This document shows, piece by piece, positions 11,041 through 30,761 of a stretch of DNA of 32,000 bases (its first letter is position 1; each line of letters opens with the position of its first letter). The notes under the pieces were generated by a model. That model had not been told where the DNA came from, did no database searches, and saw only the letters and a list, made by a program, of their open reading frames with translations. This DNA comes from Wolbachia endosymbiont strain TRS of Brugia malayi (GTDB lineage: Bacteria; Pseudomonadota; Alphaproteobacteria; Rickettsiales; Anaplasmataceae), in NCBI RefSeq assembly GCF_000008385.1, contig NC_006833.1:960001-992000 (forward strand), given 5' to 3'. A program made the position numbers and the translations under genes.

Positions 11041-13131
11041 TCACATTAACTCATCACTTTTGTAGAACATTTCATTGAAATCACTTATAGTTCCAAAATC
11101 CTGATCTTTGATAAACAGATGATTATTTGTAACATAAGCTTCAGAAAGAGTAATTGGCTTTCCATCAAGCTTAGAATCTTGTATATAAATTTTATTATAC
11201 AGAGCTATCATTTGATCATAATTGTATTTTCCAGTAGTATACTGACTACTTAAGTTTTGATAAAAATTATCTATATCTTGATCTTGAACCTGTAGCACCG
11301 CCTTATATTTACCAGTTTCAATAAATTCACCTGTCTTTATTTTCAAGGGGTGTTGTAGATAATCTACTTCATTATCCTCCATACTGTCTATAACGCTTGC
11401 TATGACGGCTTCTTCTTGTTTATTTTTATCATCTTCTTCTAGCGATCCTTTATCCCTATTTCTTTCCTCATTAGCAGGTTGTTCAGTCTGACTCTCTTGC
11501 ATATCTGATTCATTTTCATGCCTTAAATGCCCTTCGCCGTTTAACTGAATCTTGACCCAATCTTTAAACTCCTGATTATAGCCCTTCAGCTTAGTTAGAA
11601 AATCCTCAAATAATTTATTATCTTGAGGTCTATTTGTACTGTGCATAGAAAGGCTTTTCAAAAAACTATCAAGGAGATCTGGATGTTTATGCTCAAGAAA
11701 TTTTATTACCTGCTCTGCTTTTGAATAGTAATAATCTCCTTGGTTATTATTACGTAATATCTCGTCAGGTTTTAGAAACTTGCGTTGTATCGTAGAAAGA
11801 GCTTCAATATCCTCACGATCATTGACGTGCTTACCGTTTTCCACGCTTGCCATATAGTTAGCAACTCCTTCATGCATAGCTTTAGACAAAACATCGCCCG
11901 TACCATAATAAGAATTAATAATAGTCAAAGCGTGCCCCAACTCGTGCTTTAAAGTTTTACATGAGTAATCAAATTGATCCTGTAAGTAAAAATAAACATG
12001 AATTTCCGAACCGCGACCTTGGAGTGTTAAACCAGAGTGATCTTTAGCATCAATGTTCAACTCCTTAAGGTAATCTTCATAGTTGCTCCTTGTATTAAAT
12101 ACGAAAATGTTGACCTTACTTGGTATATTGTGCCAAGGCTGAGAATTATTAATGCCAAATGCTGAGTCAAAATCTCTTATGGCACCCTTGACAGTGTCTT
12201 TTATATTACTCAGCTTGTCCTGATTTAATTCTTTATTATCATACTTTATGTTTATTTGAAGCTTATGTTCGCTGAGGGTAATAACTTCACTGTCTGGTAC
12301 AAGATCTGCGGCAACTTTATTACCACCTCCTACATCCATCCACTCCTTAAATTCTCTCTCAATTCCTGAATTATTTAAAAGCTGCTTGAACCTCAACACT
12401 GCTTGTTCTTTACCAGAAGATATTTCAGTAAGCAGTTGTTTTATGAATTGAGGATGTTTTTCTTGCAAGAACGTTACTAAGCAATCTGCCATTCTATAAC
12501 CATTAGCCATATTAGCTATTTTATAAGGTGTGTTGTATCCCGATTCTTGCATCTCATCGTATGTCTCTTTTATATAGTGCATATCATGAGTACTCTTCTT
12601 CTTAGCTGCATCATAACTCCACATAAAAAGCTTCACACCAGTACGTAAGACTTCAGGTACTTCATTCAAATTGCCAGTAGCGTACTCAAGAAATGCATCA
12701 CTCATCTTTTCCATTAAAATTTTAGACTTCGCACAAAATAAACCATTTACATCTCCAATAATGAAAGTCTTTGCTATTGTACCGTCAGCTTCATGTGCCC
12801 TTACCGTTCCACCACCCCATAGTTCATTATGGTCTTTGCCACCTGAAAGCTCCTTTATGTAAGCTTTATAATCGTCATAACTTTTCAGCACATAAAGTTG
12901 CAATTTCACTGGGCCGCTATTATAGTTTTTCTGTGAATAGAAATTCTCAGACCAAGCCTCATAAGTATCTTTTACAATTTGCTTTATATAATCAGGCGTA
13001 TAGCTTATTAGTCCACCATATCTCACTTCTACTATAAGCTCATTGCTTATCACTACATCCTCTTTATTTGGAAACAGTTTTTCAATCAGCATTTGTGATT
13101 TATCATGCCCAAAATTTGTTTTGAATGCCAT
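11041..13131 (-). CDS. tandem collagenase-like (gluzincin HEXXH) protein, candidate secreted effector
   Basis: 696 aa with no N-terminal signal peptide. HELGH is encoded at 11932-11946, with a downstream MHEGVANYMA that could supply the third zinc-ligand Glu. The layout FVFNTRSNYEDYLKEL...HELGHAL...HEG resembles the M9 collagenase catalytic subdomain. The N-terminal half is a diverged copy lacking HEXXH. An acidic linker and a roughly 130-aa C-terminal domain of unknown type follow. Confidence 0.6.
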   Translation of the reverse strand: MAFKTNFGHDKSQMLIEKLFPNKEDVVISNELIVEVRYGGLISYTPDYIKQIVKDTYEAWSENFYSQKNYNSGPVKLQLYVLKSYDDYKAYIKELSGGKDHNELWGGGTVRAHEADGTIAKTFIIGDVNGLFCAKSKILMEKMSDAFLEYATGNLNEVPEVLRTGVKLFMWSYDAAKKKSTHDMHYIKETYDEMQESGYNTPYKIANMANGYRMADCLVTFLQEKHPQFIKQLLTEISSGKEQAVLRFKQLLNNSGIEREFKEWMDVGGGNKVAADLVPDSEVITLSEHKLQINIKYDNKELNQDKLSNIKDTVKGAIRDFDSAFGINNSQPWHNIPSKVNIFVFNTRSNYEDYLKELNIDAKDHSGLTLQGRGSEIHVYFYLQDQFDYSCKTLKHELGHALTIINSYYGTGDVLSKAMHEGVANYMASVENGKHVNDREDIEALSTIQRKFLKPDEILRNNNQGDYYYSKAEQVIKFLEHKHPDLLDSFLKSLSMHSTNRPQDNKLFEDFLTKLKGYNQEFKDWVKIQLNGEGHLRHENESDMQESQTEQPANEERNRDKGSLEEDDKNKQEEAVIASVIDSMEDNEVDYLQHPLKIKTGEFIETGKYKAVLQVQDQDIDNFYQNLSSQYTTGKYNYDQMIALYNKIYIQDSKLDGKPITLSEAYVTNNHLFIKDQDFGTISDFNEMFYKSDELM

Positions 13132-15991: not shown

Positions 15992-18370
15992 ATGCTAAAC
16001 TCAATTGCTATGGCAAGAACAGTTAATGTACTACTACCACTCCCAATTGACCAATTGTTTTCATATGCAGTTAAGGAAAATACTGACGTTTCAGTTGGAG
16101 ATTATGTGGTGGTGCCATTTGGCAAAAAACGCTTGATCGGAATAGTTTGGAAGTATAGTAACAAGAACGATCAAGAATTAAAATTCATTGAGCAAAAGAT
16201 CAATCTACCAAATATTAGACTAAAATTAATTGCATTTGCAGAGTGGGTTGCACAGTACAATGTAATATCTATTGGTATGCTTGCAAAAGTAATAATGGGA
16301 GGAGTGTTAAAAGTAAATCACCTAGATAAGCTAGTTCATGTTGAACAAGAGCAGGAAGTAAGTGAGATAAATTACCAACTAAACCCCGAACAGCAGATAG
16401 CCAGCAATAAAATAATAAGCAATTTGAATGAGTATTCAGTGACTTTGCTTGACGGTGAGACAGGATCTGGAAAAACGGAAGTTTATCTCTCTGTAATTGC
16501 ACAATTGATTAAGAACTATAGCAGTACACCTGCCACTCCAAATGCTGCTCGGACTTTATCATTTCAGTGCCCAGATACACAACTGTACAAACATTGCAAT
16601 TTGGGTCCACCAGTAGGGTATCATCCCAGTACTCTAATATTGGGATCCAGCTTTCCACGCAATCTCATCAAAAACGTTCATTTTAACGTAAGAGCAGCCA
16701 CTCCCATACCTAGTTTACAAACAAAATTTCTGGATTCCAGTGTTAGCTACTTACATGACATCTTTATGTTTAAGGCAAAACCCACTATAATATTCAACAC
16801 ATTGTCTTCGCCAAGTGCTGGAATGACACCAAAATATGTCGAAACGGCATCAAACAAAGGTAGTATACAAGTTTTAATCCTCCTACCTGAAATTGTTTTA
16901 ACTTCACAATTGGTAAATCGTATTCGTAGTCAAACATCAAGAAACTTAGCTGAATGGCACTCAGGACTCACTCTAAAAACTCGCAGAAACAATTGGCTCA
17001 ATACAGCAAATGGAAATGCGCAGATAATTATTGGTGCACGATCAGCACTTTTTTTGCCCTATAAAAACCTAAAATTGATCATCGTTGATGAAGAGCACGA
17101 TTCATCTTTCAAACAAGAGCAGGGAACTATATATAATGCCCGGGATATGGCAATAATCTTGGCCAAAATCGAAAACATTCCAATAATTTTATCTTCAGCA
17201 ACTCCATTACTTGAAACTATTTATCATGTTAAAAATGGAAATTACAACTATGTAAAGCTAGCTAAGCGATTCGGTGGCGCAGAATTGCCACTCATTAAAG
17301 TAGTGGATACAAGAAACAATAAGCAATGGATTTCCAATGAGCTTTTTGAAGGAATAAAACAGACCATAGAGAAAAAACAGCAGGTTATGCTTTTTTTAAA
17401 CCGCAGAGGGTATGCACAACTTGCAGTTTGTAAAAAGTGTGGATATAAAATTCCCTGCTCGAACTGCGCTGTTTGGCTCGTATACCACAAGAAAAAAAAT
17501 GCTCTTTTGTGTCATCATTGTTCTTACCAATTAAAACTTCCAGAGAAATGTTCTAATTGCCAAAGTAAACAGTCATTGTTTCTTTATGGCATAGGAATTG
17601 AAAGGTTACTTGAAGAAACAGTCAAGTTAATACCAAACGCAAAAACTGCGATTATAAGTAGCGATCAGAAGTCGGTTAGTAACGTTATTGACTTAGTGTT
17701 GAAGGAAGAGTTAAACATTATAATTGGCACGCAGATAATTGCTAAAGGGCACAACTTCCCTAAATTAACTTTGGTTGGTGTGATAAATGCAGATTTGAGT
17801 CTTGAAAATGCTGATCTAAGAGCAGCAGAAAAGACGTATCAGTTATTACATCAAGTTGCAGGAAGGTCTGGAAGGTTTAATGAAAAAGGAATGGTAATAG
17901 TGCAAACCAATCATCCTGAAAGTTCAGTAATAAAAGCATTGCAGCATCAAAAAAGGGACTCATTTTATGAAATCGAACTTGAGTCAAGGTACAAAGCTAA
18001 AATGCCTCCATTTAGTAGACTAATCGCACTTATAATTTGCGGTAAGAATCAGATTGCAACACAAAAAGCAGCAAATGAGATAGCGAGCTTCTTGCATAAT
18101 CAATGTTTAAGCAAAAAGCTCCCGTCCTCTTCTTCTTTGTCATTCCAGTGCTTGACCCTAAAATCTAGAAAAAAAGAATTTGAAATTCTTGGTCCATCAC
18201 CGGCAGCAATAAGTTTCTTAAATAATAAGTACCGGTATAGGGTATTGCTAAAAATATATAATAAACATAGTCTATCCGTACAAAAAAAGCTGAAATATTG
18301 GATTAAAAATTGTAACTTAAGTCCGAATATTATAGTAACAATAGATGTTGATCCTATAAGTTTTTTTTAA
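15992..18370 (+). CDS. priA: primosomal replication protein N' (PriA helicase) carrying in-frame repeat insertions
   Basis: 792 aa. N-terminal VNVLLPLPIDQLFSY, Walker A GETGSGKTEVY, DEEH box (IIVDEEHDSSFK), Cys-rich zinc region (CKKCGYKIPCSNCAVWLVYHKKKNALLCHHCSY...CSNC) and QVAGRSGR. The start could also be the ATG at 16010. The ORF stays intact despite a 113-codon insertion after Walker A. Confidence 0.9.
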   Translation: MLNSIAMARTVNVLLPLPIDQLFSYAVKENTDVSVGDYVVVPFGKKRLIGIVWKYSNKNDQELKFIEQKINLPNIRLKLIAFAEWVAQYNVISIGMLAKVIMGGVLKVNHLDKLVHVEQEQEVSEINYQLNPEQQIASNKIISNLNEYSVTLLDGETGSGKTEVYLSVIAQLIKNYSSTPATPNAARTLSFQCPDTQLYKHCNLGPPVGYHPSTLILGSSFPRNLIKNVHFNVRAATPIPSLQTKFLDSSVSYLHDIFMFKAKPTIIFNTLSSPSAGMTPKYVETASNKGSIQVLILLPEIVLTSQLVNRIRSQTSRNLAEWHSGLTLKTRRNNWLNTANGNAQIIIGARSALFLPYKNLKLIIVDEEHDSSFKQEQGTIYNARDMAIILAKIENIPIILSSATPLLETIYHVKNGNYNYVKLAKRFGGAELPLIKVVDTRNNKQWISNELFEGIKQTIEKKQQVMLFLNRRGYAQLAVCKKCGYKIPCSNCAVWLVYHKKKNALLCHHCSYQLKLPEKCSNCQSKQSLFLYGIGIERLLEETVKLIPNAKTAIISSDQKSVSNVIDLVLKEELNIIIGTQIIAKGHNFPKLTLVGVINADLSLENADLRAAEKTYQLLHQVAGRSGRFNEKGMVIVQTNHPESSVIKALQHQKRDSFYEIELESRYKAKMPPFSRLIALIICGKNQIATQKAANEIASFLHNQCLSKKLPSSSSLSFQCLTLKSRKKEFEILGPSPAAISFLNNKYRYRVLLKIYNKHSLSVQKKLKYWIKNCNLSPNIIVTIDVDPISFF
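16517..16855. repeat. about 339-nt palindromic element inserted in frame in priA
   Basis: It lies between ...SVIAQLIKN and KGSIQVLILLPEIVLTSQ, which are contiguous in E. coli PriA ([25 protein letters not shown], from memory). It is GC-richer than its flanks. It contains TTATCATTTCAGTGCCCAG at the left and CCAAGTGCTGGAATGACACC at the right (imperfect terminal inverted repeats). Internally it carries ATCCCAGTACTCTAATATTGGGATCCAG and CTGGATTCCAGTG. Confidence 0.7.
18115..18175. repeat. second in-frame repeat fragment near priA 3' end
   Basis: Core GTCATTCCAGTGCTTGACCC at 18139-18158 encodes SLSFQCLTL, just upstream of the conserved ILGPSPAAI block. Confidence 0.5.
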
Positions 18371-20929: not shown

Positions 20930-21536
20930 TTAAATTTGCACTTGAAGAATTTTTTGATTTCTGAGCAGTATTAGTATTTTTAATAACCTGCTGCATTGTT
21001 GGACTAAACCCTCTAACATTGTGCTATCCACTATTTTACCGCTGTCACTAAAAGCGATTGTCGATACTCTACTTCCCTGTAGTTTCAAAGTATGGAGTAG
21101 AGCCATTCACCCCTTCAATAACATGCCACAAACAATATTTAACGACACATTTATATGTTTAAATTGTTTACTAAAACTCTTATTCTGAGCATCCTGCTCA
21201 AAAATGGAGTAGAGCCATTCACCCCTTCAATAACATGCCACAAACAATATTTAACGACACATTTATATGTTTAAATTGTTTACTAAAACTCTTATTCTGA
21301 GCATCCTGCTCAAAAATTGCTTTTATTCCAGCAAATCTAGCTTGATAAGATTTTGGGAGAACAGGTGGAGTAATCTTTCCAAGTTTTATTACTTTTTCTA
21401 ACTCATTCTACGACTATAACTCAGTTTCTGGCGCTCTTGCGCGGTACCTGCGGAGCAATCATACCTTATTGAGTTAACCTTTCCTTTGTTTTTAGGAAAA
21501 ACTTTTAGATTATTTTTTTCTACTGTAGTAGTCATT
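20930..21536 (-). pseudogene. unknown gene remnant disrupted by frameshifts and a 112-bp tandem duplication
   Basis: ATG at 21536 gives MTTTVEKNNLKVFPKNKGKVNSIRYDCSAGTAQERQKLSYSRRMS-stop. The next frame gives NELEKVIKLGKITPPVLPKSYQARFAGIKAIFEQDAQNKSFSKQFKHINVSLNIVCGMLLKG-stop. Then ...SRVSTIAFSDSGKIVDSTMLEGLVQQCSRLLKILILLRNQKILQVQI-stop (20930-20932). Confidence 0.4.
21092..21317. repeat. perfect 112-bp tandem duplication (about 2.0 copies)
   Basis: ATGGAGTAGAGCCATTCACCCCTTCAATAACATGCCACAAACAATATTTAACGACACATTTATATGTTTAAATTGTTTACTAAAACTCTTATTCTGAGCATCCTGCTCAAAA at 21092-21203 repeats at 21204-21315. I could see no mismatch. Confidence 0.9.
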
Positions 21537-21612: not shown

Positions 21613-22884
21613 CTAAATATTTACTCTAGCTTCAATAAGCATTGCCAGAGGATTCTCTATATAATGTTTAAAGGCGTTTAAAAATTTTGCTCCTAACACC
21701 CCGTCAACTGCTCTGTGGTCAACAGAAAGCGTTACTGTTATTATCTCTACTATCTCTATTTTTTCATCGATAACAATAGGCTGCTTTTTAGATGTACCAA
21801 TAGCCATAATGCAAGACTGTGGTGGATTGATTATAGCACTAAAAGTTTTTATACTGAACATTCCTAAGTTGGAGATAGTAAATCCGCCTCCTTGAAATTC
21901 TTCTGGTCCCAATTTTCCAGACCTCGCTCTGATTACTAGATCTTTCACTTCTTTTGATATAGACAAAATACCTTTTTCATCAGCATTTTTCACTATAGGA
22001 GTAATGAGTCCATCTTCAAGTGCTACAGCGATTGAAATATCTATATTTGCATACCTCAGTATTTTATTATCTATCCACGAAGAATTTATATCAGGAAATT
22101 TTTTCATGCTGAAAGCCACAGCTTTTATAATTAAGTCATTAATTGTTACTTTATTGTTTTTATCTGCTGAGTTAATCTCATTTTTGAGCGATATTAGCTT
22201 ATCAACTTGGCACTCCACAGTTAAGTAAAAATGTGGAATATTCTGTTTAGCCTCAATGAGGCGTTGCGCTATCACTTGGCGCATGTTACTTACTTCAAGT
22301 ATAGTATCTTCATCCGATCTTTCACGATTTTTAATTTGTACACCACTATCTAAAAACCCCAGTACATCAGCTTTAATAATACGGCCATATGGCCCAGTAC
22401 CCTTTAACCGTCTAACATTGATCCCTTCATTCTGAGCTATTTTTTTAGCTAATGGGCTTACTTTTATCCTACTTTCTGTTGTCTTAGTACCCTCTTCCTT
22501 CTTAGATTCCTGTGTCAAGCACTGAGATGACATCGAAGGGTTGGATGATACTGAAGAGGTGGTTACAACTTTCTCCTTAACCTCAATATTGACAGCAGGA
22601 ACTGAAACATAGTTATCAATCGCACTTTTGTCTTCCCCTTCTTCTAGCATTAGAGCTATCAGCTGATTAACAGGCACGCCGCTTGTTCCTTCCGACACTA
22701 AAATTTTCGCTAAAACCCCTCTATCTACAGATTCAAACTCCATTATGGCTTTATCAGTCTCTATTTCAGCAATTACATCACCTACTTCAACTCTATCTTG
22801 CTCTTTCTTACACCACTTCACAATCTTTCCCCCAGTTTTACTCATCGTTGGAGAAAGAGCAGGCATTAATATTTCTATAGGCAT
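21613..22884 (-). CDS. pdhC: pyruvate dehydrogenase complex E2, dihydrolipoamide acetyltransferase
   Basis: 423 aa. Lipoyl domain MPIEILMPALSPTM...EIETDKAIMEFES, E3-binding domain SPLAKKIAQNEGINVRRLKGTGPYGRIIKADV and catalytic LSVDHRAVDG. Confidence 0.92.
   Translation of the reverse strand: MPIEILMPALSPTMSKTGGKIVKWCKKEQDRVEVGDVIAEIETDKAIMEFESVDRGVLAKILVSEGTSGVPVNQLIALMLEEGEDKSAIDNYVSVPAVNIEVKEKVVTTSSVSSNPSMSSQCLTQESKKEEGTKTTESRIKVSPLAKKIAQNEGINVRRLKGTGPYGRIIKADVLGFLDSGVQIKNRERSDEDTILEVSNMRQVIAQRLIEAKQNIPHFYLTVECQVDKLISLKNEINSADKNNKVTINDLIIKAVAFSMKKFPDINSSWIDNKILRYANIDISIAVALEDGLITPIVKNADEKGILSISKEVKDLVIRARSGKLGPEEFQGGGFTISNLGMFSIKTFSAIINPPQSCIMAIGTSKKQPIVIDEKIEIVEIITVTLSVDHRAVDGVLGAKFLNAFKHYIENPLAMLIEARVNI
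22480..22580. repeat. in-frame repeat fragment in the pdhC inter-domain linker
   Basis: The coding strand reads GTCATCTCAGTGCTTGACAC (plus strand 22512-22534 region), encoding SMSSQCLTQ. It is 17/20 identical to the priA 3' core and is read in the same frame. Confidence 0.5.
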
Positions 22885-23224: not shown

Positions 23225-23722
23225 TTAAAAAAGGATCTTGACTGGCAGTAGTTCCTGAATCTTCTGTAGCATGCTCCTTGTATGAAGTAGAAGGTTCTTT
23301 ACACTCCGGAAAGTTACTCTCCTGTACAGAGTATTACATTGCCCACAGAAACTTCTTAACGTCTCTTCAGCAGATGAATTTAAAATTTGTATAATAGACC
23401 TTTCACTTTGTTCTTTTGGTGATTGATCAATCCTAGAAATCAACCCAGAAACCCTACTATCTTCTTTTTCAGCTTCACTTTTTATTTTACTTTTTATACT
23501 TGCAATGTTACCTTGGTCGATTTCCTTTTTTGTTATATTGAATGAACTTGCAATACCTTGATACTTGATCTTGCAATCGCCACTACCAACTATACAAAGA
23601 GTAATAGAGTCAGATAGCTCACTTGCAGCCTGCTTACGTATGGCGTAAGCCAAATAATTATCATGGTATTCAACGTTAAATTGTTATTCTATTAACTTAG
23701 AAATTTTACTTTTTAGAGACAT
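23225..23722 (-). pseudogene. unknown 165-codon gene with premature in-frame TAA at codon 13
   Basis: Strong SD TAAGGAGGGG (23729-23738, minus strand), a 6-nt spacer, then ATG at 23722. Translation is MSLKSKISKLIE-TAA(23686-23684)-QFNVEYHDNYLAYAIRKQAASELSDS... The ORF-track 142-aa version only begins at a TTG at 23653. Confidence 0.45.
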
Positions 23723-23876: not shown

Positions 23877-26672
23877 CTATAGCCCTAATAATTTCTTTTT
23901 GATTTCTTCCTCTATCTCCCTAGTTATACCGGGATAAAGTTTTTCAATTAAACTGCTAACACTAACATTACTATTCTGGTCCACAAGAGCATTAATTATT
24001 TCTTCCACTTTTTTACCATCAATCTGTACAGATTTAATAATAATATAACCAGGAGAGCCTCTGCCATAGGTTTGATTAATGTCATCAATACAGCCACCTG
24101 CACCAGGATTACTGCTCCTAAAACCACTGCTACATTTTACCTTTTCATACTTGATTTTACTATCTTTTATATATGCTACTTGATTGTCTTCAGTAAAATT
24201 TTTATCTGTTACTATTGTTGGATTTCCTAATATCTTTAAATTACCTAAATTATTATGGATCTTCGTCTTCTTATACTCTTTTCCACCGTACATCCTATAT
24301 TTACCACCACCTGCAACAGTAATTAAATCTTTACAGTTTGCTTCTGAAGAGTCTTTGCACATTTTTATGAAAGTTGGTCCACCATCCTTATTGGATATAT
24401 GACTTGTGAGTCTACCACCCCCCTCTGTAGCTTGAGCTCTAATTATAGGATATTCAGGATCAACTTTTAATTGAATTTTGATATAATCTCCTGGCATTCC
24501 TGGTCTACTTTCCATAGAGTGAGCTGCATTTTTTACATGACCTGCTTCACCACCTCCCCATGCTTCTATTTCAATATAACCGTATTTTGATAAATCACCT
24601 GTATAATTATTATCACCTAAAAAGGTATAAGGTTGCGGCAAATTTTTATTTTTCAGCCGTTTGTTTATTGTATCCAGCACCTTTTTCTTCACACTCTCCA
24701 AGTCAAGCTTACATAATTTATCAGCGTAAAAGACCTCTGTTCTGTTTACCTTAATTGGTCGATCTTTTAATTGTGTGCACTTCTGTACTTCATTTTTTTC
24801 ATTTCTCAATGTTCTGCCATTTTTGTCTTTACAATCCACTTCCTCATATCTTAAGTAAAATGGACTACCATCTTTTTTATTTAAATATTGTTCTAAATCT
24901 GTCAATCTATATACTACTTTCAGTCCTTTATTAGATGCAAATGCTTTATCTATTTCATCATTTCTTTCTACACAGTAACTGCACTTTTCTTTCTCCTGTT
25001 TATTTTCGTCAGGGAAGAAAACATACCCTTGCTTGTTGAATATCATTTCGTCTAACTGTTTTTGAGGTCTTTTTAACAGGTCAATTATCTCCTTTTCCTT
25101 GCTTGGAAGATAATAGAACTGATTTGATTCCTTTGAATAAACAGCATTGTATTTAATATACCTCGCTCCTATTGATTTTAGCGATATTATCTCACCATCT
25201 CTCTCAAGAACAAACTCTTCTGGCTCTGGTTTCCAGCCAGAAAGGCAAAGCATTTTACCATTAGAATTTTCTTGATCTTTTACTCTCATATATCTCACTT
25301 CTATCTTTGGTCGTCCCATATTATCCAATTCCCACTTAGTAGATCCAATTTCACTGTTTTCCTTGGAATTTGTTATACTGTAGCTCTTACCATCAGGAAA
25401 CTGGATCCCAATATTAGGAGTAAGCCCATATTTTTCTAAAACTTCAAACTGAGGGTTCTTTCTTAAGATACCTTCTATAACATCAGTGATATTACCTTCA
25501 TTATTATTACTATTAGTTGTTTTCTTTACTATCCTCGGTTTGACTACTTTCAAAGATAGAGGGCCAATGTTTGTTGAAGAACCAGTATTAACATAGAAAG
25601 CATTTGCACCCATCTTCATTTTTACCTCCAGTGTATTTTCATCTACTATCTCTACCCTTTCAGGTTCTGGAGCAGGTGGGGCCGGAAAACAGCTGACAGA
25701 CTGGAGATTTTCTTTATCCATATTTTGAGTTCCATAGTATTCAGCACAGAGCTGATCCTTTTTTCTATAGGTCTTGAAGTAATAAGTAGTACCCTTACCA
25801 TCTTCAACCTCGTGTGAAGTTCTTTGGAAATCCAATTCTTTTTTTTCTAATTTACCAATGATTACCCTAACTCTTGGGTTAAAGTAATCATTGTCCTTAT
25901 TTGTTATAGGGACAATTTTAACCTGTGGAAGTAACATTCCAAGTTGTTCACAGAATGGAGGTGGACCAGGTGCAAGTGGTATAGGAGCACACTTTATCTT
26001 TTGCTTTCCTTCATTCCATGATGAACAAGTATCACAAGCTTTTCCCATATTCCCTAGATGGAAAATGTTTTCTCCTGAAAACACTCTAGCACCCCATGAA
26101 GAAATTCCTGACATACAAGACCCTTTTTGACTGCAAGCGCATATTTTAGGAGAATTAGAAAATTTTACTTTCTCTTCATCAGTAACATTATCTGCCCATT
26201 CCCACTTAAGGCCCTTCGCAATTCCTTCTTTGATCTTTTCACTGTTATCTGTCCTAATCGTCCCATCAGCTAATATTTTATCTCCTTCCCAATCGATAAA
26301 AACCGCAGCAGAAACTCCAGCACCTGTACTTTGTGTTCCATATATCTGGCGGCAGGATGTTCCACTAGGTAATATATAACAATTATTTTTTCCTTCGTAA
26401 TCACAGACCTGAATCTTTGGGTCAAAATAACCATCAGTTCCTTGGTCTTTTACCTGCCTTACTGTAATGTATTGGTATAATCTTTCATCAACCTGAAAAC
26501 TTCCAGCAGTACCAAAACTAAAAATTTTTATAAAACCCTCTAAAGCTTTTTTACCCCCAGCTTCAAATTTAGTATTATTCTCTACAAAAGGCGGGCAATC
26601 AGCATATCCTTGACATGAGAGATAAAATGTCAAAAAGAATATCAATAAAAAATTAAGTTTTACACTTTCCAT
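23877..26672 (-). CDS. 931-aa exported Cys-rich protein with C-terminal glycine-rich domain, unknown function
   Basis: N-terminal signal peptide MESVKLNFLLIFFLTFYLSCQGYADC, with a possible lipobox-like LSC. About 24 Cys and no further TM segments. Pro-rich hinges (PLAPGPPPF, PAPPAPEPE). The C-terminal ~240 aa carry spaced Gly clusters (EAWGGGEAGH, TEGGGR, KDGGPT, VAGGGKYRMYGG, NPGAGGC, YGRGSPGYIIIK). The start overlaps the VirB4-like stop by 20 nt. Confidence 0.75.
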   Translation of the reverse strand: MESVKLNFLLIFFLTFYLSCQGYADCPPFVENNTKFEAGGKKALEGFIKIFSFGTAGSFQVDERLYQYITVRQVKDQGTDGYFDPKIQVCDYEGKNNCYILPSGTSCRQIYGTQSTGAGVSAAVFIDWEGDKILADGTIRTDNSEKIKEGIAKGLKWEWADNVTDEEKVKFSNSPKICACSQKGSCMSGISSWGARVFSGENIFHLGNMGKACDTCSSWNEGKQKIKCAPIPLAPGPPPFCEQLGMLLPQVKIVPITNKDNDYFNPRVRVIIGKLEKKELDFQRTSHEVEDGKGTTYYFKTYRKKDQLCAEYYGTQNMDKENLQSVSCFPAPPAPEPERVEIVDENTLEVKMKMGANAFYVNTGSSTNIGPLSLKVVKPRIVKKTTNSNNNEGNITDVIEGILRKNPQFEVLEKYGLTPNIGIQFPDGKSYSITNSKENSEIGSTKWELDNMGRPKIEVRYMRVKDQENSNGKMLCLSGWKPEPEEFVLERDGEIISLKSIGARYIKYNAVYSKESNQFYYLPSKEKEIIDLLKRPQKQLDEMIFNKQGYVFFPDENKQEKEKCSYCVERNDEIDKAFASNKGLKVVYRLTDLEQYLNKKDGSPFYLRYEEVDCKDKNGRTLRNEKNEVQKCTQLKDRPIKVNRTEVFYADKLCKLDLESVKKKVLDTINKRLKNKNLPQPYTFLGDNNYTGDLSKYGYIEIEAWGGGEAGHVKNAAHSMESRPGMPGDYIKIQLKVDPEYPIIRAQATEGGGRLTSHISNKDGGPTFIKMCKDSSEANCKDLITVAGGGKYRMYGGKEYKKTKIHNNLGNLKILGNPTIVTDKNFTEDNQVAYIKDSKIKYEKVKCSSGFRSSNPGAGGCIDDINQTYGRGSPGYIIIKSVQIDGKKVEEIINALVDQNSNVSVSSLIEKLYPGITREIEEEIKKKLLGL

Positions 26673-29007
26673 AGAACACTGGTAACCACTTATTCACTTC
26701 TTCTCCTTTTTCTTTTATTGCTTCATACATATATTTTATAGTCTCTCTGTTAGCTGAGAGCACATGTATTTCTTGTATATTCTTCAAATCTAAATTTAAA
26801 GTTACTAATCCTTTATACTGCTTTATCAAAAATAAACCTTCTTGAGTTGGTGTTTGCAAAATTATATTCAGCTCCTCTTTTGATAGGGAAAATGCTTTCA
26901 TATACAACCTATTTGCATTGAAGTTCGGCATTAAAATTCTTGTATCAACATGCTTATCCAAATATTGAGTAAATTCGCTAGCAAATGCTAGGTTTAAGTT
27001 CTCAGTACTCAGAATTACCACAACGTTTAATTCTGTCATCCTTTGCATCCAATTATCGAACCCTTCCTCTGTAGGAAAAATACTACTTATCTCCCATGCT
27101 TCATCCAAAACAAGTATTGCAGGTGAGCCATCACATTGTGCCTCAAAAGAGTATAAAAAATAGTAAAGTATCACGGACATACATTCTTTGTGCTTTGTGA
27201 GGTTTGCAGTGTTGAGAGATATAGTCTTTATTTTCCAGTCAATATCTGATTCATCACTATCCTGGAATAAGTAAGCAAACTCACCATCACCACACCATTT
27301 ACTTATCTTACCTTTCAAGAGCAAGAGCATCTCAGAAATTCGCGAAATAGAACGCGATTCTCTAGGTATAGCAAATATAGAATCTACAACTTTTTTTATC
27401 TTTTCTTTTATACCTACCAAGCTAGTATCGGCCACCATTCTTTTGATCAGTTCAACCAGCATACTACGGTTGGAAGCACTATCTTCAATGTTTAATGGGT
27501 TAAATTTTAGGCTTTTATTCTTATATTTCGGATCGATTATATAATACTTACCACTCACTGCTTTGGTAAAAATTATTGATTTTCCGGTGTTATCTAATAT
27601 GATAATTCTAGGATTAAATTTTCTTGACTCTGATAATAGAAAATTAATCAATGAGGTCCTACCCGAATTTGGAGCTCCAAGTATCGTAGTGTGACCATTG
27701 TTTTTCTTTCCATGAAAATTAAAGAAGTAAGGACTCCCCTTTTTTGAAAAAAAGACTGTTACTGCTTCTTTCCACCTTCCACCTTTTAATGTACCTGAAG
27801 TAAAATCATGTAGCATAGCAAAACTGCAAGCATATTTTGCTAATATATTTTTCGGTTGTGTAACAAAAGCAAAATTACCTGGAAGTTGTGCCCAAAAATG
27901 ATTTTCCATATGAAGGTCAGTTCTGAACATCATCAAACCAATTAACGACATCACGGAGGATAAACTACTAATATTCTCGGCCAATCTATTTCTATCATCT
28001 GCAAAAATCGTAAAAATAATTTTCTGTTGGCAAAAGTCTATAGTAGAAGTTCCTTCAAGTTCTATTATTTCTTTTATTTCTGAATTCCTAAGCAAGGTAT
28101 TATCTTCACTGACTTGCAGCATATTAATTTGTTTTTTAAATTCTTTCATCGCTTTGTTATTACTAGTAAATATTATTATTTCTGTAATAATGAGCTCAGA
28201 GTCAAGTTGCAAGCACCTGTCTATATTCCCCAGGGGAATTTCACGATATTCCTTTATACAAAAAACAGAACCAAACTTCTGCTGATTTTCAAATATTGTT
28301 TGAAACGTGTTAAAACCAAAGGCTATCTTTAAATTTTTAATATATTGCGATAGATCCCTTTCACATATTGGATGATCTTTGTGCGTTAATGTAACAATAT
28401 AATGGAGAAACTCTATCATTTCAGAATATACTTTATCTCCATTAAACCTCAGAGCCAGCTTTTTGGCCCCAAAAGGTTCTAAGTCACTTTGAATTAAGTC
28501 AGTTACCCTCTGTAATTCCTGATGGTTTTCTTGTAAAGATAGCTTATGCTTATTTCTTATCCCACCAAAAAAAAATGAATTATTACTATGCTTATTAAAA
28601 TCGCTAACCAATATTACAATGTATAACTCGTTTATATATCGTAATTTACTATTAGTGAGTTTATCAAGCCACGTTGAGTGTAGCTTATCAGAAAAGTCTC
28701 CAGTTTTATTCCATTTCAAACTCAGTTTATTGCGCTTCCTAACAGTATGAATCCAAACGGTAAAATATAGGCTATCAATATTTTTTGATATGCTTTTTCT
28801 AATCTCAGTTCTAAGGTCACTGTAGTTATCAGCAGAGGAGTAATCTTCTAATTTTATTATCTTTAACAACTCCCCCTGTTTTGTCAGTATAGTTTCTTCA
28901 TCGTAATGACAAGCATAAGGAATAAAATCTAAATCAATACTCTCTATTAATGCTAAGTTGTTCTTTTTTTCAAATTTAGGATTAATTGTTGGTGTTTTTA
29001 CCTGCAT
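26653..29007 (-). CDS. virB4: VirB4/TrbE-family type IV secretion ATPase, divergent paralog (Walker A GxxxxGRT)
   Basis: 784 aa. N-terminal FIPYACHYDEETILTKQGELLKIIKLE is typical of VirB4. Walker A is LGAPNSGRTS, with Arg where the canonical Lys sits. Walker B is PAILVLDEAWE. No VirB3-like TM region is fused. Confidence 0.85.
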   Translation of the reverse strand: MQVKTPTINPKFEKKNNLALIESIDLDFIPYACHYDEETILTKQGELLKIIKLEDYSSADNYSDLRTEIRKSISKNIDSLYFTVWIHTVRKRNKLSLKWNKTGDFSDKLHSTWLDKLTNSKLRYINELYIVILVSDFNKHSNNSFFFGGIRNKHKLSLQENHQELQRVTDLIQSDLEPFGAKKLALRFNGDKVYSEMIEFLHYIVTLTHKDHPICERDLSQYIKNLKIAFGFNTFQTIFENQQKFGSVFCIKEYREIPLGNIDRCLQLDSELIITEIIIFTSNNKAMKEFKKQINMLQVSEDNTLLRNSEIKEIIELEGTSTIDFCQQKIIFTIFADDRNRLAENISSLSSVMSLIGLMMFRTDLHMENHFWAQLPGNFAFVTQPKNILAKYACSFAMLHDFTSGTLKGGRWKEAVTVFFSKKGSPYFFNFHGKKNNGHTTILGAPNSGRTSLINFLLSESRKFNPRIIILDNTGKSIIFTKAVSGKYYIIDPKYKNKSLKFNPLNIEDSASNRSMLVELIKRMVADTSLVGIKEKIKKVVDSIFAIPRESRSISRISEMLLLLKGKISKWCGDGEFAYLFQDSDESDIDWKIKTISLNTANLTKHKECMSVILYYFLYSFEAQCDGSPAILVLDEAWEISSIFPTEEGFDNWMQRMTELNVVVILSTENLNLAFASEFTQYLDKHVDTRILMPNFNANRLYMKAFSLSKEELNIILQTPTQEGLFLIKQYKGLVTLNLDLKNIQEIHVLSANRETIKYMYEAIKEKGEEVNKWLPVFYGKCKT

Positions 29008-29525: not shown

Positions 29526-30761
29526 TTAAACATGCAGTAGGCTTCTTTCATTATTAATAACAGGACTCGAATTGGTGTACATTAATTTACTTGAAGGAGG
29601 GAGAGTTAAATACCATACAGCTACTGCTGCTGTAGCAAACACTACAGCTATAACAGACAATCCTAGAAACAATGCTCTTGATTTTATTACTACTGCCCCA
29701 ACAAAACACCCAATTGCTAAAAGAGCACAACCTGTTGTAAATATACCGTAAAATTCTCTGTTACTGAGTTGTTCTTTAGGTAGAATATTTTCACCTTTTT
29801 TTTCATTCATAGGAAGTTTCTGCATGGTAATATCTTCTACGTTCTTTTTCTTCTTAGGAGGTTGTACTGGACTTACCTTGCTGACCTGGTTTTTGTTTTC
29901 TTGCACCTGCAGCTCTTCTCTTGCAGTCTGGTCTAGTTTCATTTGGTTCTCATTTTCTTCTTTTTGTAGATTGTTATCTTCTTCAGCAGAGCTTAATATT
30001 GAGCTTACATTGCTCCTTTCACTACCTAACGGTGACTCTAAACCGTCTTCACTTAATCCAGGCAAACTTACTCCACTATCTCCACCACTACCATTATTGA
30101 GTTCAGAAGCATTTGTTTCTGGTTCTAAAGTATCCATTTTTGTAAGTAATTTTTCTCCAAAATTAAATTGACTATTATCTCTTAGATTGGGTAAGCTTCT
30201 CCAACATTTTAGACTTGTTTCTTCACATGTATTACCTGATTCTGAATTTTCAGCAGTGCAACTAAGGGTATTGTCTGCCCCATTTGCAGATTGTTCATTT
30301 GTTTCTGCATTAGAATGACTTTCATTACTGTTCTTGCTAACAGCATCTGAAGTTATTAATTTCATAATTATTTGTTCTATTTTTATTTTTTCTATTAGGT
30401 TTAGTTCTTTTGATTTTATTATTTCTCTTTTCAACGCTGGAAGAAAGTGTTGGATATAATTATTATAATATTTCTCTTGTTCTATCAGTAATTCTCCTAA
30501 TTTAGTTAATACCTCAGGACTAGCTCCTTTCTTGAACAACTTTTTGCATTTCCTGGGAGTCTTATCTTGTCCACTCTCTTGATTTTCTCGATAGTCTTTT
30601 TTTGTTACCCTTTTTTTTATAACTTTGCACAATTCTTCTGTTTTTGATGCTGAATAACACTTTACCCCTTCCAAGGCCCGTGAATTTTTAGTAGAATTGT
30701 CAAAAGAGTTGTAAGGATTATTCCCTGTTAAATTAAAAACTATCGCTACATTATCATCCAC
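29526..30761 (-). CDS. 411-aa low-complexity protein with C-terminal two-helix hydrophobic hairpin
   Basis: GTG start at 30761. A long Ser/Asn/Glu/Lys-rich segment that is probably disordered, then a basic patch (PPKKKKN), then FYGIFTTGCALLAIGCFVGAVVIKSRALFLGLSVIAVVFATAAVAVWYL. No signal peptide and no recognisable enzymatic motif. Confidence 0.6.
   Translation of the reverse strand: MDDNVAIVFNLTGNNPYNSFDNSTKNSRALEGVKCYSASKTEELCKVIKKRVTKKDYRENQESGQDKTPRKCKKLFKKGASPEVLTKLGELLIEQEKYYNNYIQHFLPALKREIIKSKELNLIEKIKIEQIIMKLITSDAVSKNSNESHSNAETNEQSANGADNTLSCTAENSESGNTCEETSLKCWRSLPNLRDNSQFNFGEKLLTKMDTLEPETNASELNNGSGGDSGVSLPGLSEDGLESPLGSERSNVSSILSSAEEDNNLQKEENENQMKLDQTAREELQVQENKNQVSKVSPVQPPKKKKNVEDITMQKLPMNEKKGENILPKEQLSNREFYGIFTTGCALLAIGCFVGAVVIKSRALFLGLSVIAVVFATAAVAVWYLTLPPSSKLMYTNSSPVINNERSLLHV

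Follow-up and report, generated by a model that had tools for sequence, protein, structure and literature searches.

A predicted short form of the EtpE invasin family encoded behind a second VirB4 gene in the Wolbachia endosymbiont of Brugia malayi

In a stretch of 32,000 nucleotides (nt) from the genome of the Wolbachia endosymbiont of Brugia malayi, strain TRS (wBm; NC_006833.1, positions 960,001 to 992,000 of the forward strand; hereafter the window), we have found a gene whose 931-amino acid (aa) cysteine-rich product is, as judged from sequence and profile comparisons, a short-form member of the EtpE superfamily, in that it consists of the N-terminal module of the Ehrlichia invasin EtpE followed by a helical tail of 46 aa. 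With a probability of roughly 0.6, we propose that this short form is a Sec-exported, disulfide-rich protein of the cell envelope with a role in contact, coupled to the rvh type IV secretion system (T4SS). On the basis of gene order, of the names of the neighbors and of the listing of WBM0748, WBM0749, WBM0751 and WBM0752 in an earlier study (PMC6160203), the gene is most probably WBM0749. WBM0749 has been annotated as "hypothetical", was once placed among "likely surface proteins" (PMC1069646) and is well transcribed (PMC7787461). An identical protein is present on record CP034333.1, and the closest non-identical match, with 95% identity, is from the Wolbachia of Wuchereria bancrofti. The G+C content of the window is about 34%. 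The gene and the parts of its product, all on the minus strand, are as follows.

23877..26672, minus strand: gene of the EtpE-N-like cysteine-rich protein, an open reading frame (ORF) with an ATG start, 931 aa
26601..26672, minus strand: putative signal peptide, aa 1-24, MESVKLNFLLIFFLTFYLSCQGYA followed by DC, the sole hydrophobic segment
25638..26600, minus strand: N-terminal cysteine-rich region, aa 25-345, with invariant columns and 13 of the 24 cysteines
24693..25637, minus strand: central beta-rich region, aa 346-660, with an MLCLSGW motif, a Q..LD motif and C654; aligns with aa 365-600 of E. canis EtpE (hhalign)
24018..24692, minus strand: glycine-rich domain, aa ~661-885, EAWGGGEAGH ... 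GMPGDY ... EGGG ... AGGG ... PGAGGC ... GRGSPGYIIIK
23880..24017, minus strand: helical C-terminal tail, aa 886-931, three predicted helices, ending in the conserved I(E/K)EE(I/V)KKELLG

Within Wolbachia more than 200 clusters of orthologs were found, at 50-95% identity. With a profile built from them, a search of 1.84 billion representative proteins recovered about 25 full-length relatives from outside Wolbachia, which are 680-1840 aa long and cover both the cysteine-rich and the glycine-rich parts. A scan of one genome per species located such relatives in Ehrlichia canis, E. muris, E. ruminantium, E. mineirensis, Neoehrlichia, Anaplasma sp. and Mesenet, as well as in metagenome-assembled genomes (MAGs) of unclassified Anaplasmataceae and Rickettsiales. 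Another relative comes from an organism named "Rickettsiaceae bacterium H1", and E. chaffeensis also has a family member in a "conserved domain protein" of 750 aa (ABD45385.1). The Mesenet-like and other relatives were found by the Wolbachia profile at E values of 1e-47 to 1e-25, and the identity to the Mesenet, Anaplasma, Ehrlichia, Neoehrlichia and unclassified Rickettsiales members is 20-27%. Wolbachia and its relatives have in common the motifs F.P.I.V, ICA, C.P.P.AP.PPPFC, IVPV and CLSGW, and further toward the C terminus C.F.T.EAWGGG..G, G..G.Y.K, C..L..A.GG and PG.GGC....Q.G..G.V..TCE.W. Few matches came from word-indexed homolog searches that started from the distant alignment or from one distant member (P0148). 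A scan of genomes with the pattern F[VIL][TK]xEAWGGG, taken from a nine-sequence alignment, is blind to the variants of Wolbachia, of the A. phagocytophilum type and of Rickettsia, and absence of the family from Rickettsia or Orientia cannot be claimed from it.

The E. canis member is EtpE by the NCBIfam equivalog model NF049896 (2590 bits, cut-off 1500), and the intermediate relatives match positions ~200-850 of this model with E values of 1e-16 to 1e-136 (59-455 bits). The window protein gave no match to NF049896 at E<=1 and is thus not EtpE in the equivalog sense. In a profile-to-profile comparison (hhalign) the Wolbachia alignment matched that of the Ehrlichia, Neoehrlichia and Anaplasma N-terminal modules with a probability of 99.7% (E 1.1e-25, 541 columns), aa 222-880 of the window protein being paired with aa 214-799 of E. 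canis EtpE. The positions of the E. canis and E. ruminantium loci found here agree with the tags Ecaj_0838 and Erum7970, which were named as EtpE orthologs before (PMC3789761). The module of every EtpE stops at TCE.W, around aa 750-800, in agreement with the published "conserved N-terminal ~700 residues". Mesenet and MAG relatives stop at TCE.W directly after the glycine-rich domain, and the Ehrlichia and Anaplasma members continue into long unrelated extensions. Because of the hhalign alignment and of this common module end, the Wolbachia protein is read here as module plus tail. The preliminary description of this gene, made from the letters of the window, had also considered that the protein might be something new; it instead belongs, by these profile comparisons, to an already named family as a remote member. 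Among the titles and abstracts of the library searched, none linked EtpE with Wolbachia or with VirB4, and "EtpE" and "glycine-rich" occurred together in just one, unrelated paper.

EtpE was described as an entry-triggering invasin which, in E. chaffeensis, is surface-exposed and sensitive to pronase (PMC3789761). In the same study the C-terminal part, EtpE-C, was shown to be the invasin proper, which binds DNase X and works on coated beads without other bacterial factors, and it was found to lack conservation even within Ehrlichia; the surface exposure was shown for EtpE-C only, whereas antibody had poor access to EtpE-N on live Ehrlichia, and EtpE-N was not invasive and was predicted to be a membrane-proximal anchor. 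Like the Wolbachia protein, EtpE (ECH_1038 in E. chaffeensis) has the cysteine pattern, the C.P.P.APGPPPFC hinge, the (M/V).CLSGW and EAWGGG..G motifs and an ending of the PG.GGC ... TCE.W type; both carry an N-terminal signal, and both genes lie downstream of a second VirB4 paralog. The two differ in that EtpE runs 700-1200 aa beyond the module and the Wolbachia protein only 46 aa, that the identity between them is ~22%, and that the first ~220 aa of the Wolbachia protein were not aligned to Ehrlichia EtpE. Since it ends 46 aa past the module, the Wolbachia protein is without an equivalent of the DNase X-binding region EtpE-C. It was previously suggested that the window gene encodes a surface or host-contact protein, and this gains backing from its closest characterized relative, a surface-exposed invasin; it is weakened by the fact that the Wolbachia counterpart is EtpE-N, the half that was poorly accessible and non-invasive.

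The features of the N-terminal half point to export. An h-region, LNFLLIFFLTFYL, is followed by the conserved QGYADC, an arrangement that fits a Sec signal peptide with an inferred cleavage between QGYA and DC; the QGYADC or GYSD motif is kept in orthologs, and most of the distant relatives likewise begin with a hydrophobic N terminus. A lipoprotein reading of the "LSC" at aa 18-20 was rejected, as that cysteine is present in only two of 22 orthologs. The protein has exactly 24 cysteines, as the preliminary description had estimated, of which 22 are in the mature protein; 18 are invariant across 22 Wolbachia orthologs (a sample of 57-83% identity), and 12 are invariant or nearly so across the wider family at ~20% identity. 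The N-terminal region contains the motifs YF(D/N)PKIQVC, SPKICACSQ, CDTC, KCAPIPLAPGPPPFC and FPAPPAPEPE, which are shared with distant relatives, and the two proline hinges noted earlier are both present and conserved, as PIPLAPGPPPFC at aa 229-240 and as FPAPPAPEPE at aa 329-338. In 10 of 25 distant members (P0137, P0141, P0148, P0151, P0152, P0153, P0157, P0172, P0175 and P0177, with P0132 as a weaker case) a strongly hydrophobic Gly/Ala-rich insert of 40-60 aa lies between the "ICAC" cysteine and the C.P.PLAPGPPPFC hinge. This insert, which resembles a transmembrane hairpin or a fusion loop and whose equivalent in the window protein is aa 178-228 (nt ~25989-26141), is not found in Wolbachia or Ehrlichia; the Wolbachia loop is hydrophilic and poorly modelled.

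These features bear on the proposal that WBM0749 is an effector translocated by the T4SS to act inside the host cell, as is assumed where it is listed as an effector candidate on the grounds that it is co-regulated with the T4SS and was detected in dissected B. malayi tissue (PMC6160203). That paper names WBM0749 once, in the candidate list. T4SS effectors that are recognized in the cytoplasm are expected to have no Sec signal and to be recognized by VirD4 through a C-terminal signal, and the signal-peptide-like N-terminal segment of this protein is conserved in the family; together with the 22 mature cysteines, most of them conserved, it argues for an oxidizing extracytoplasmic location. In addition, EtpE, its homolog, remains at the surface of the bacterium, and a Pfam scan of the window protein found no eukaryote-like domain. 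Because of the signal peptide, the cysteines and the behavior of EtpE, we regard a role as a translocated effector as highly improbable.

The C-terminal part of the module, aa ~661-885, is a glycine-rich domain of the type known from phage minor tail proteins and from ALK. The clusters WGGGEAGH, GMPGDY, EGGG, KDGG, AGGG, PGAGGC and GRGSPG are kept in Wolbachia and in distant relatives, in line with the regular glycine clusters reported before. The Pfam family PF21722 (Gly_rich_2) was matched by 16 of 30 family members at E<=0.01, with scores above the gathering score of 24.3 bits in E. canis EtpE (31.7 bits), Mesenet (31.2 bits) and Anaplasma (29.2 bits), and PF12810 (ALK_LTK_GRD) was matched by two of the 30; the window protein itself scored 17 bits against PF21722 (E 0.006). 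An AlphaFold2 model from Wolbachia sequences only had a mean predicted local distance difference test (pLDDT) score of 56.6 and was poor outside the C terminus, and with distant relatives added the pLDDT rose to 74.6, with a predicted template modelling score of 0.55; in the glycine-rich region pLDDT is about 80 in both models. In the second model beta-rich domains span aa ~60-660, followed by a long helix (657-675), a beta-rich part (680-885) and three short terminal helices; pLDDT is 80-91 at aa 250-390, and the loop 186-247 is of low confidence. The top Foldseek match in the PDB was the human ALK glycine-rich domain (7ls0_C, E 6.1e-5, probability 0.98), with further matches to the Bxb1 tail tip (9d93) and, for the first model, to the cyanophage Pam3 fiber (7ypx). 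Among predicted viral structures (BFVD) there were 96 matches at E<=1e-3 over ~225-250 aligned columns, and those listed were mostly phage minor tail or "glycine-rich domain-containing" proteins.

The likeness to phage tail fibers suggested in the preliminary description is thus borne out for this domain. Phage minor tail and tail-fiber proteins and the glycine-rich domains of ALK and LTK share the fold and the spaced glycine clusters of the C-terminal ~225 aa; the glycine-rich domain is all that they have in common with the Wolbachia protein, at 12-19% sequence identity, and they are without its conserved C772, C780, C847 and C861 and without a T4SS context. Foldseek found no confident fold relative in the PDB for the N-terminal and central domains, and searches of NCBIfam (E<=1), PHROGs and PDB sequences gave no match for the window protein. 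No enzyme family appeared in any search, so that placement in an unrelated family such as a periplasmic enzyme, which had been named as an outcome that would speak against a surface role, did not occur. The conserved half of EtpE, so far without a function, is predicted to contain a binding domain of the phage-fiber type.

It is also conceivable that the protein is an accessory of the rvh machine with a structural role, located in the periplasm or embedded in the outer membrane and, in Wolbachia, not exposed; it might, for example, be a part of the extra "wing" or "baseplate" densities. This would agree with the poor accessibility of EtpE-N on live Ehrlichia and its predicted place as a membrane-proximal anchor, with the Wolbachia protein being the N-module only, and with the unexplained additional periplasmic densities that the rvh machine has in situ (bioRxiv 10.1101/2025.08.29.673095). 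Against it, mean identity among Wolbachia orthologs is 52% in the glycine-rich domain and 42% in the tail, and 60-69% in the other parts; as the glycine-rich domain and the tail are the most variable, exposure fits better than burial. In phage fibers and in ALK, moreover, such glycine-rich domains are found at the distal, ligand-binding ends. A buried structural accessory is thus rather improbable. The 46-aa tail was confined to the Wolbachia members among those examined.

The second group of observations concerns the genes that surround WBM0749. The neighbors in the window, again on the minus strand, are listed here.

26653..29007, minus strand: VirB4 paralog II, 784 aa; PF03135 at 6e-29, TIGR00929 at 444 bits against a cut-off of 643 bits
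29038..29418, minus strand: ORF of 126 aa with a signal peptide and two adjacent hydrophobic helices, VirB2-like by topology and position only
29526..30761, minus strand: acidic Ser/Asn/Glu-rich ORF of 411 aa with C-terminal hydrophobic segments, the first gene of the Wolbachia cluster in wBm-type and wMel-like loci
23225..23653, minus strand: small gene, "WBM0748 family T4SS-associated protein", NCBIfam NF049850 at 189 bits against a cut-off of 150 bits

The last 20 nt of the VirB4-II gene are shared with WBM0749, whose ATG they contain. As previously proposed, the gene follows a virB4 gene and is coupled to it by this overlap; the virB4 in question is a degenerate second paralog, not that of the virB3-virB4-virB6 operon, and the main wBm virB operon, Wbm0793-0798, is located elsewhere in the genome (PMC1069646). 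VirB4-II scores below all NCBIfam VirB4 cut-offs, and the lysine of its Walker A motif is replaced (GAPNSGRTS). In the equivalent VirB4 of every other lineage retrieved the Walker A lysine was likewise lost, to R, S, C, M or V. Further variants of the motif include GLPNSGRTL, GKPESGSTS, SSVT and SHMT (loci L004, L007, L008, L009, L011, L017 and L020), and the Walker B DEAW is degenerate in several lineages (NFAW, YEAW). VirB4-II thus looks like a conserved pseudo-ATPase. In Rickettsia, the paralog VirB4b or RvhB4-II was reported to have mutated residues for binding of nucleoside triphosphates (PMC2653234), and VirB4-II of the window fits this paralog. In a wBm-type draft genome (GCA_902646505.1; L002 5665-8020) VirB4-II is split into pieces of 152 and 588 aa, by a sequencing error or as an incipient pseudogene, and the EtpE-like gene is intact.

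The 126-aa ORF is conserved 5' of VirB4-II in Wolbachia. Its identification as VirB2 was rejected as unproven, there being no Pfam match, marginal phmmer matches and an hhalign probability of 9.9%. The 411-aa ORF, which matched no Pfam or NCBIfam family and for which no counterpart was called at the Mesenet locus, is probably WBM0752, a gene listed as co-regulated with the T4SS (PMC6160203). On the other side, other Wolbachia have a small gene (113-170 aa) at the same downstream position as the one in the window. A promoter and terminator scan of the cluster gave nothing above shuffled controls, and a promoter-like site with 10 of 12 matching positions at 29472-29444 on the minus strand, 5' of the 126-aa ORF, is not evidence.

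A VirB4 homolog was found directly 5' of the first family gene, on the same strand, in all Anaplasmataceae loci with enough flanking sequence, which cover Wolbachia supergroups D, A and S, three Mesenet or Mesenet-like genomes, MAG OZ242261, Anaplasma, five Ehrlichia and two Neoehrlichia. MAG OZ253531, from Rickettsiales, and one additional metagenomic genome show the link too, and it persists although the genomes are otherwise heavily rearranged. The overlap between the VirB4 gene and the family gene is 20 nt in the Wolbachia supergroups and in two Mesenet loci (L007, L015) and ~17 nt in a Mesenet-like MAG (L014); in two MAG lineages there is a 4-nt overlap or an 8-nt gap. In this additional metagenomic genome (L030 4925-6010) the upstream VirB4 is just 361 aa long and consists of the CagE_TrbE_VirB part only, yet there is still a 10-nt overlap with the family gene. 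One or two TrbC/VirB2 genes (PF04956) lie 5' of VirB4 at four non-Wolbachia loci (L008, L009, L011 and L030), and E. canis has there two ORFs of ~120 aa (631-996 and 1068-1430 of its locus) which closely resemble Anaplasma VirB2 proteins; at the Mesenet locus no VirB2 gene was called 5' of VirB4. Wolbachia has one family copy, whereas in Anaplasma, Ehrlichia and Neoehrlichia two or three tandem paralogs follow virB4-2 (L011 12559-20258; L016 10873-13182; L017 10671-13178; L021 10883-13013; L023 5860-9870; L024 11658-13754; L027), the E. chaffeensis protein ABD45385.1 being one of them.

The linkage to VirB4 in orthologs, on which the preliminary description had relied, accordingly holds for the first family gene at every Anaplasmataceae locus with flank, and fails for members in two deep-branching lineages. 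In "Rickettsiaceae bacterium H1" two members stand in tandem between gatB and atpD (L028 6001-10335), and no VirB4 lies closer than 6 kb; the second paralog of MAG OZ242261 (L029 5980-8049) lies near flagellar genes and atpD with no VirB4 nearby. In MAG OZ253531 a VirB2-VirB4-EtpE-like cluster is located directly before atpD. These positions hint that the neighborhood of atpD was an old shared location of the family. MAG OZ242261, which is labelled Anaplasmataceae, encodes flagellar proteins of the FliN and FlgK types (L008 3579-3842; L029 2683-4869), unusual for Anaplasmataceae as usually described.

Such isolated members could indicate that these proteins are stand-alone adhesins of the outer membrane or surface with no tie to the T4SS, their position after VirB4-II being merely inherited gene order. 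EtpE does act as an invasin on coated beads alone, through EtpE-C, and VirB4-II looks catalytically dead. On the other hand, the adjacency was kept across proteins of ~20-25% identity and although the genomes share little synteny, several lineages have the start codon within the VirB4 gene, and the Pfam and NCBIfam scans of the window protein, which gave no autotransporter, type I secretion or lipoprotein signal, revealed no outer-membrane route of its own. An adhesin that is independent of the T4SS is therefore unlikely in our view.

The position of the gene also raises the question of VirB5, which normally follows virB4. It was stated earlier that Rickettsiales lack a recognizable VirB5, and this agrees with published work, in which VirB5 was reported absent from all Rickettsiales (PMC7789307, PMC2653234). 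A 2025 preprint using cryo-electron tomography described a long rvh pilus in Wolbachia and named the missing VirB5 as a problem, calling it unresolved how such a pilus is made without it (bioRxiv 10.1101/2025.08.29.673095). The module could, on this evidence, be a functional replacement of VirB5, that is, a minor pilus subunit or a pilus-tip adhesin and nucleator of the rvh T4SS, which would be assembled from the periplasm onto VirB6 and VirB2 with the aid of VirB4-II and to which extensions like EtpE-C would give receptor specificity. Like VirB5, TraC and CagL, the Wolbachia protein stands after VirB4, with VirB2 nearby in relatives (VirB2 genes at L008, L009, L011 and L030 and the VirB2-like ORFs of E. 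canis), has a Sec signal, as VirB5 does, and is proposed to contact the host; its distal domain is of the receptor-binding fiber type. At the E. canis and Anaplasma loci at least two VirB2 or VirB2-like genes and two or three EtpE-like paralogs occur per cluster.

In the Trw system of Bartonella, the trwL and trwJ genes, which encode VirB2 and VirB5, are co-amplified and serve host-specific adhesion. The Anaplasma locus, and that of E. canis with its VirB2-like ORFs, resemble Trw in having several pilin and several putative adhesin genes, the difference being that Trw amplifies VirB5, the Anaplasma and Ehrlichia clusters amplify the EtpE-like gene, and Wolbachia has single copies. Nevertheless, a true VirB5 likeness was not upheld, as no similarity of sequence or fold to VirB5 or TraC was detected (Pfam at E<=1; Foldseek against the PDB). 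VirB5 and TraC have ~220 aa and form a three-helix bundle with a globular appendage, whereas the Wolbachia protein, at 931 aa, is four times the size of VirB5, beta-rich and placed beside a degenerate VirB4. Some family members occur alone, without VirB4 or VirB2, and no such gene is found in the main virB3-virB4-virB6 operon. The TraN-like role that had been entertained earlier fared no better. TraN, the cysteine-rich outer-membrane mating-pair stabilizer of F-type systems, is likewise large, with a signal peptide, rich in cysteine and encoded in a T4SS cluster; its context is F-type, whereas the neighbors here are VirB4 and P-type rvh genes. Neither the TraN reading nor that of a periplasmic enzyme had a supporting match in Pfam or in Foldseek searches of the PDB. 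We therefore put forward only tentatively that the EtpE-N module is a functional counterpart of VirB5, a disulfide-rich, phage-fiber-like tip that might be loaded onto the VirB2 pilus by an ATPase-dead VirB4-II and which would be bare in Wolbachia and bear receptor-specific extensions in Ehrlichia and Anaplasma.

In the explanation that we favor, that of a short EtpE form with a role in contact and coupled to the rvh T4SS, the protein would be exported by Sec and oxidized in the periplasm, DsbA-type oxidoreductases being present in Wolbachia. It would then be added to, or pass through, the rvh type IV apparatus along with the proteins encoded by its neighbors, which is probable because no route of its own across the outer membrane could be recognized. 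VirB4-II may serve as a non-hydrolyzing assembly factor in this step, and the small two-helix protein or VirB2 may be a further partner. In Agrobacterium, VirB4 stabilizes pilus components without needing its Walker A site, and VirB4-II could act likewise. The glycine-rich domain would finally be displayed at the cell envelope or on the pilus and bind host structures; in Wolbachia module and tail would be the working part, and in Ehrlichia and Anaplasma the module would carry lineage-specific extensions including EtpE-C. The name "T4SS-associated" given by the NCBI curators to the family of the downstream gene is in keeping with such a role.

Several points weigh against this explanation. As EtpE-N is poorly accessible and does not act as an invasin in Ehrlichia, the part kept by Wolbachia may be buried. 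The coupling looks looser in Ehrlichia, Neoehrlichia and Anaplasma, where 0.5-1.5 kb separate virB4-2 and the gene; the linkage to VirB4 is not universal, being absent at the two deep-branching loci; and the 126-aa neighbor could not be shown to be VirB2. The window protein also remains below the gathering score of PF21722 and without an NCBIfam match, and its N-terminal and central domains have no recognizable fold relatives.

Elsewhere in the window, a perfect tandem duplication (112-nt unit, two copies, 100% identical) is located at 21092-21315, in the intergenic spacer that separates recR from the gene for dihydrolipoamide acetyltransferase. An inverted repeat of 46 nt, 74% complementary, occurs in two coding regions (18132-18177 and 22493-22538), namely in the 3' part of priA and in the linker of the acetyltransferase gene, where it is read in frame as ...SFQCLTLKSRKKE... 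and ...SSQCLTQESKKEE... and resembles a small repeat element that was inserted without a frameshift. The DEAD domain of PriA contains ~110 additional aa. A 696-aa protein encoded at 11041-13131 on the minus strand has a weak match, above threshold, to Peptidase_M9 (collagenase) with an HELGH motif, and may be a secreted metalloprotease.

To our knowledge, no adhesin or invasin has been characterized in Wolbachia. The relationship described here ties a Wolbachia-wide "hypothetical protein", WBM0749 in the filarial drug target wBm, to the experimentally studied invasin EtpE, and it is of value chiefly as a hypothesis that can be tested, not as proof of a mechanism. It offers a specific candidate, open to test, for a host-contact or pilus-associated part of the rvh system, and it raises the possibility that the surface display of EtpE itself may depend on the T4SS. 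If the module were indeed the counterpart of VirB5, the best-studied invasin of Ehrlichia would be joined to the secretion machine, and the construction by Wolbachia of the pilus seen by cryo-electron tomography would be explained.

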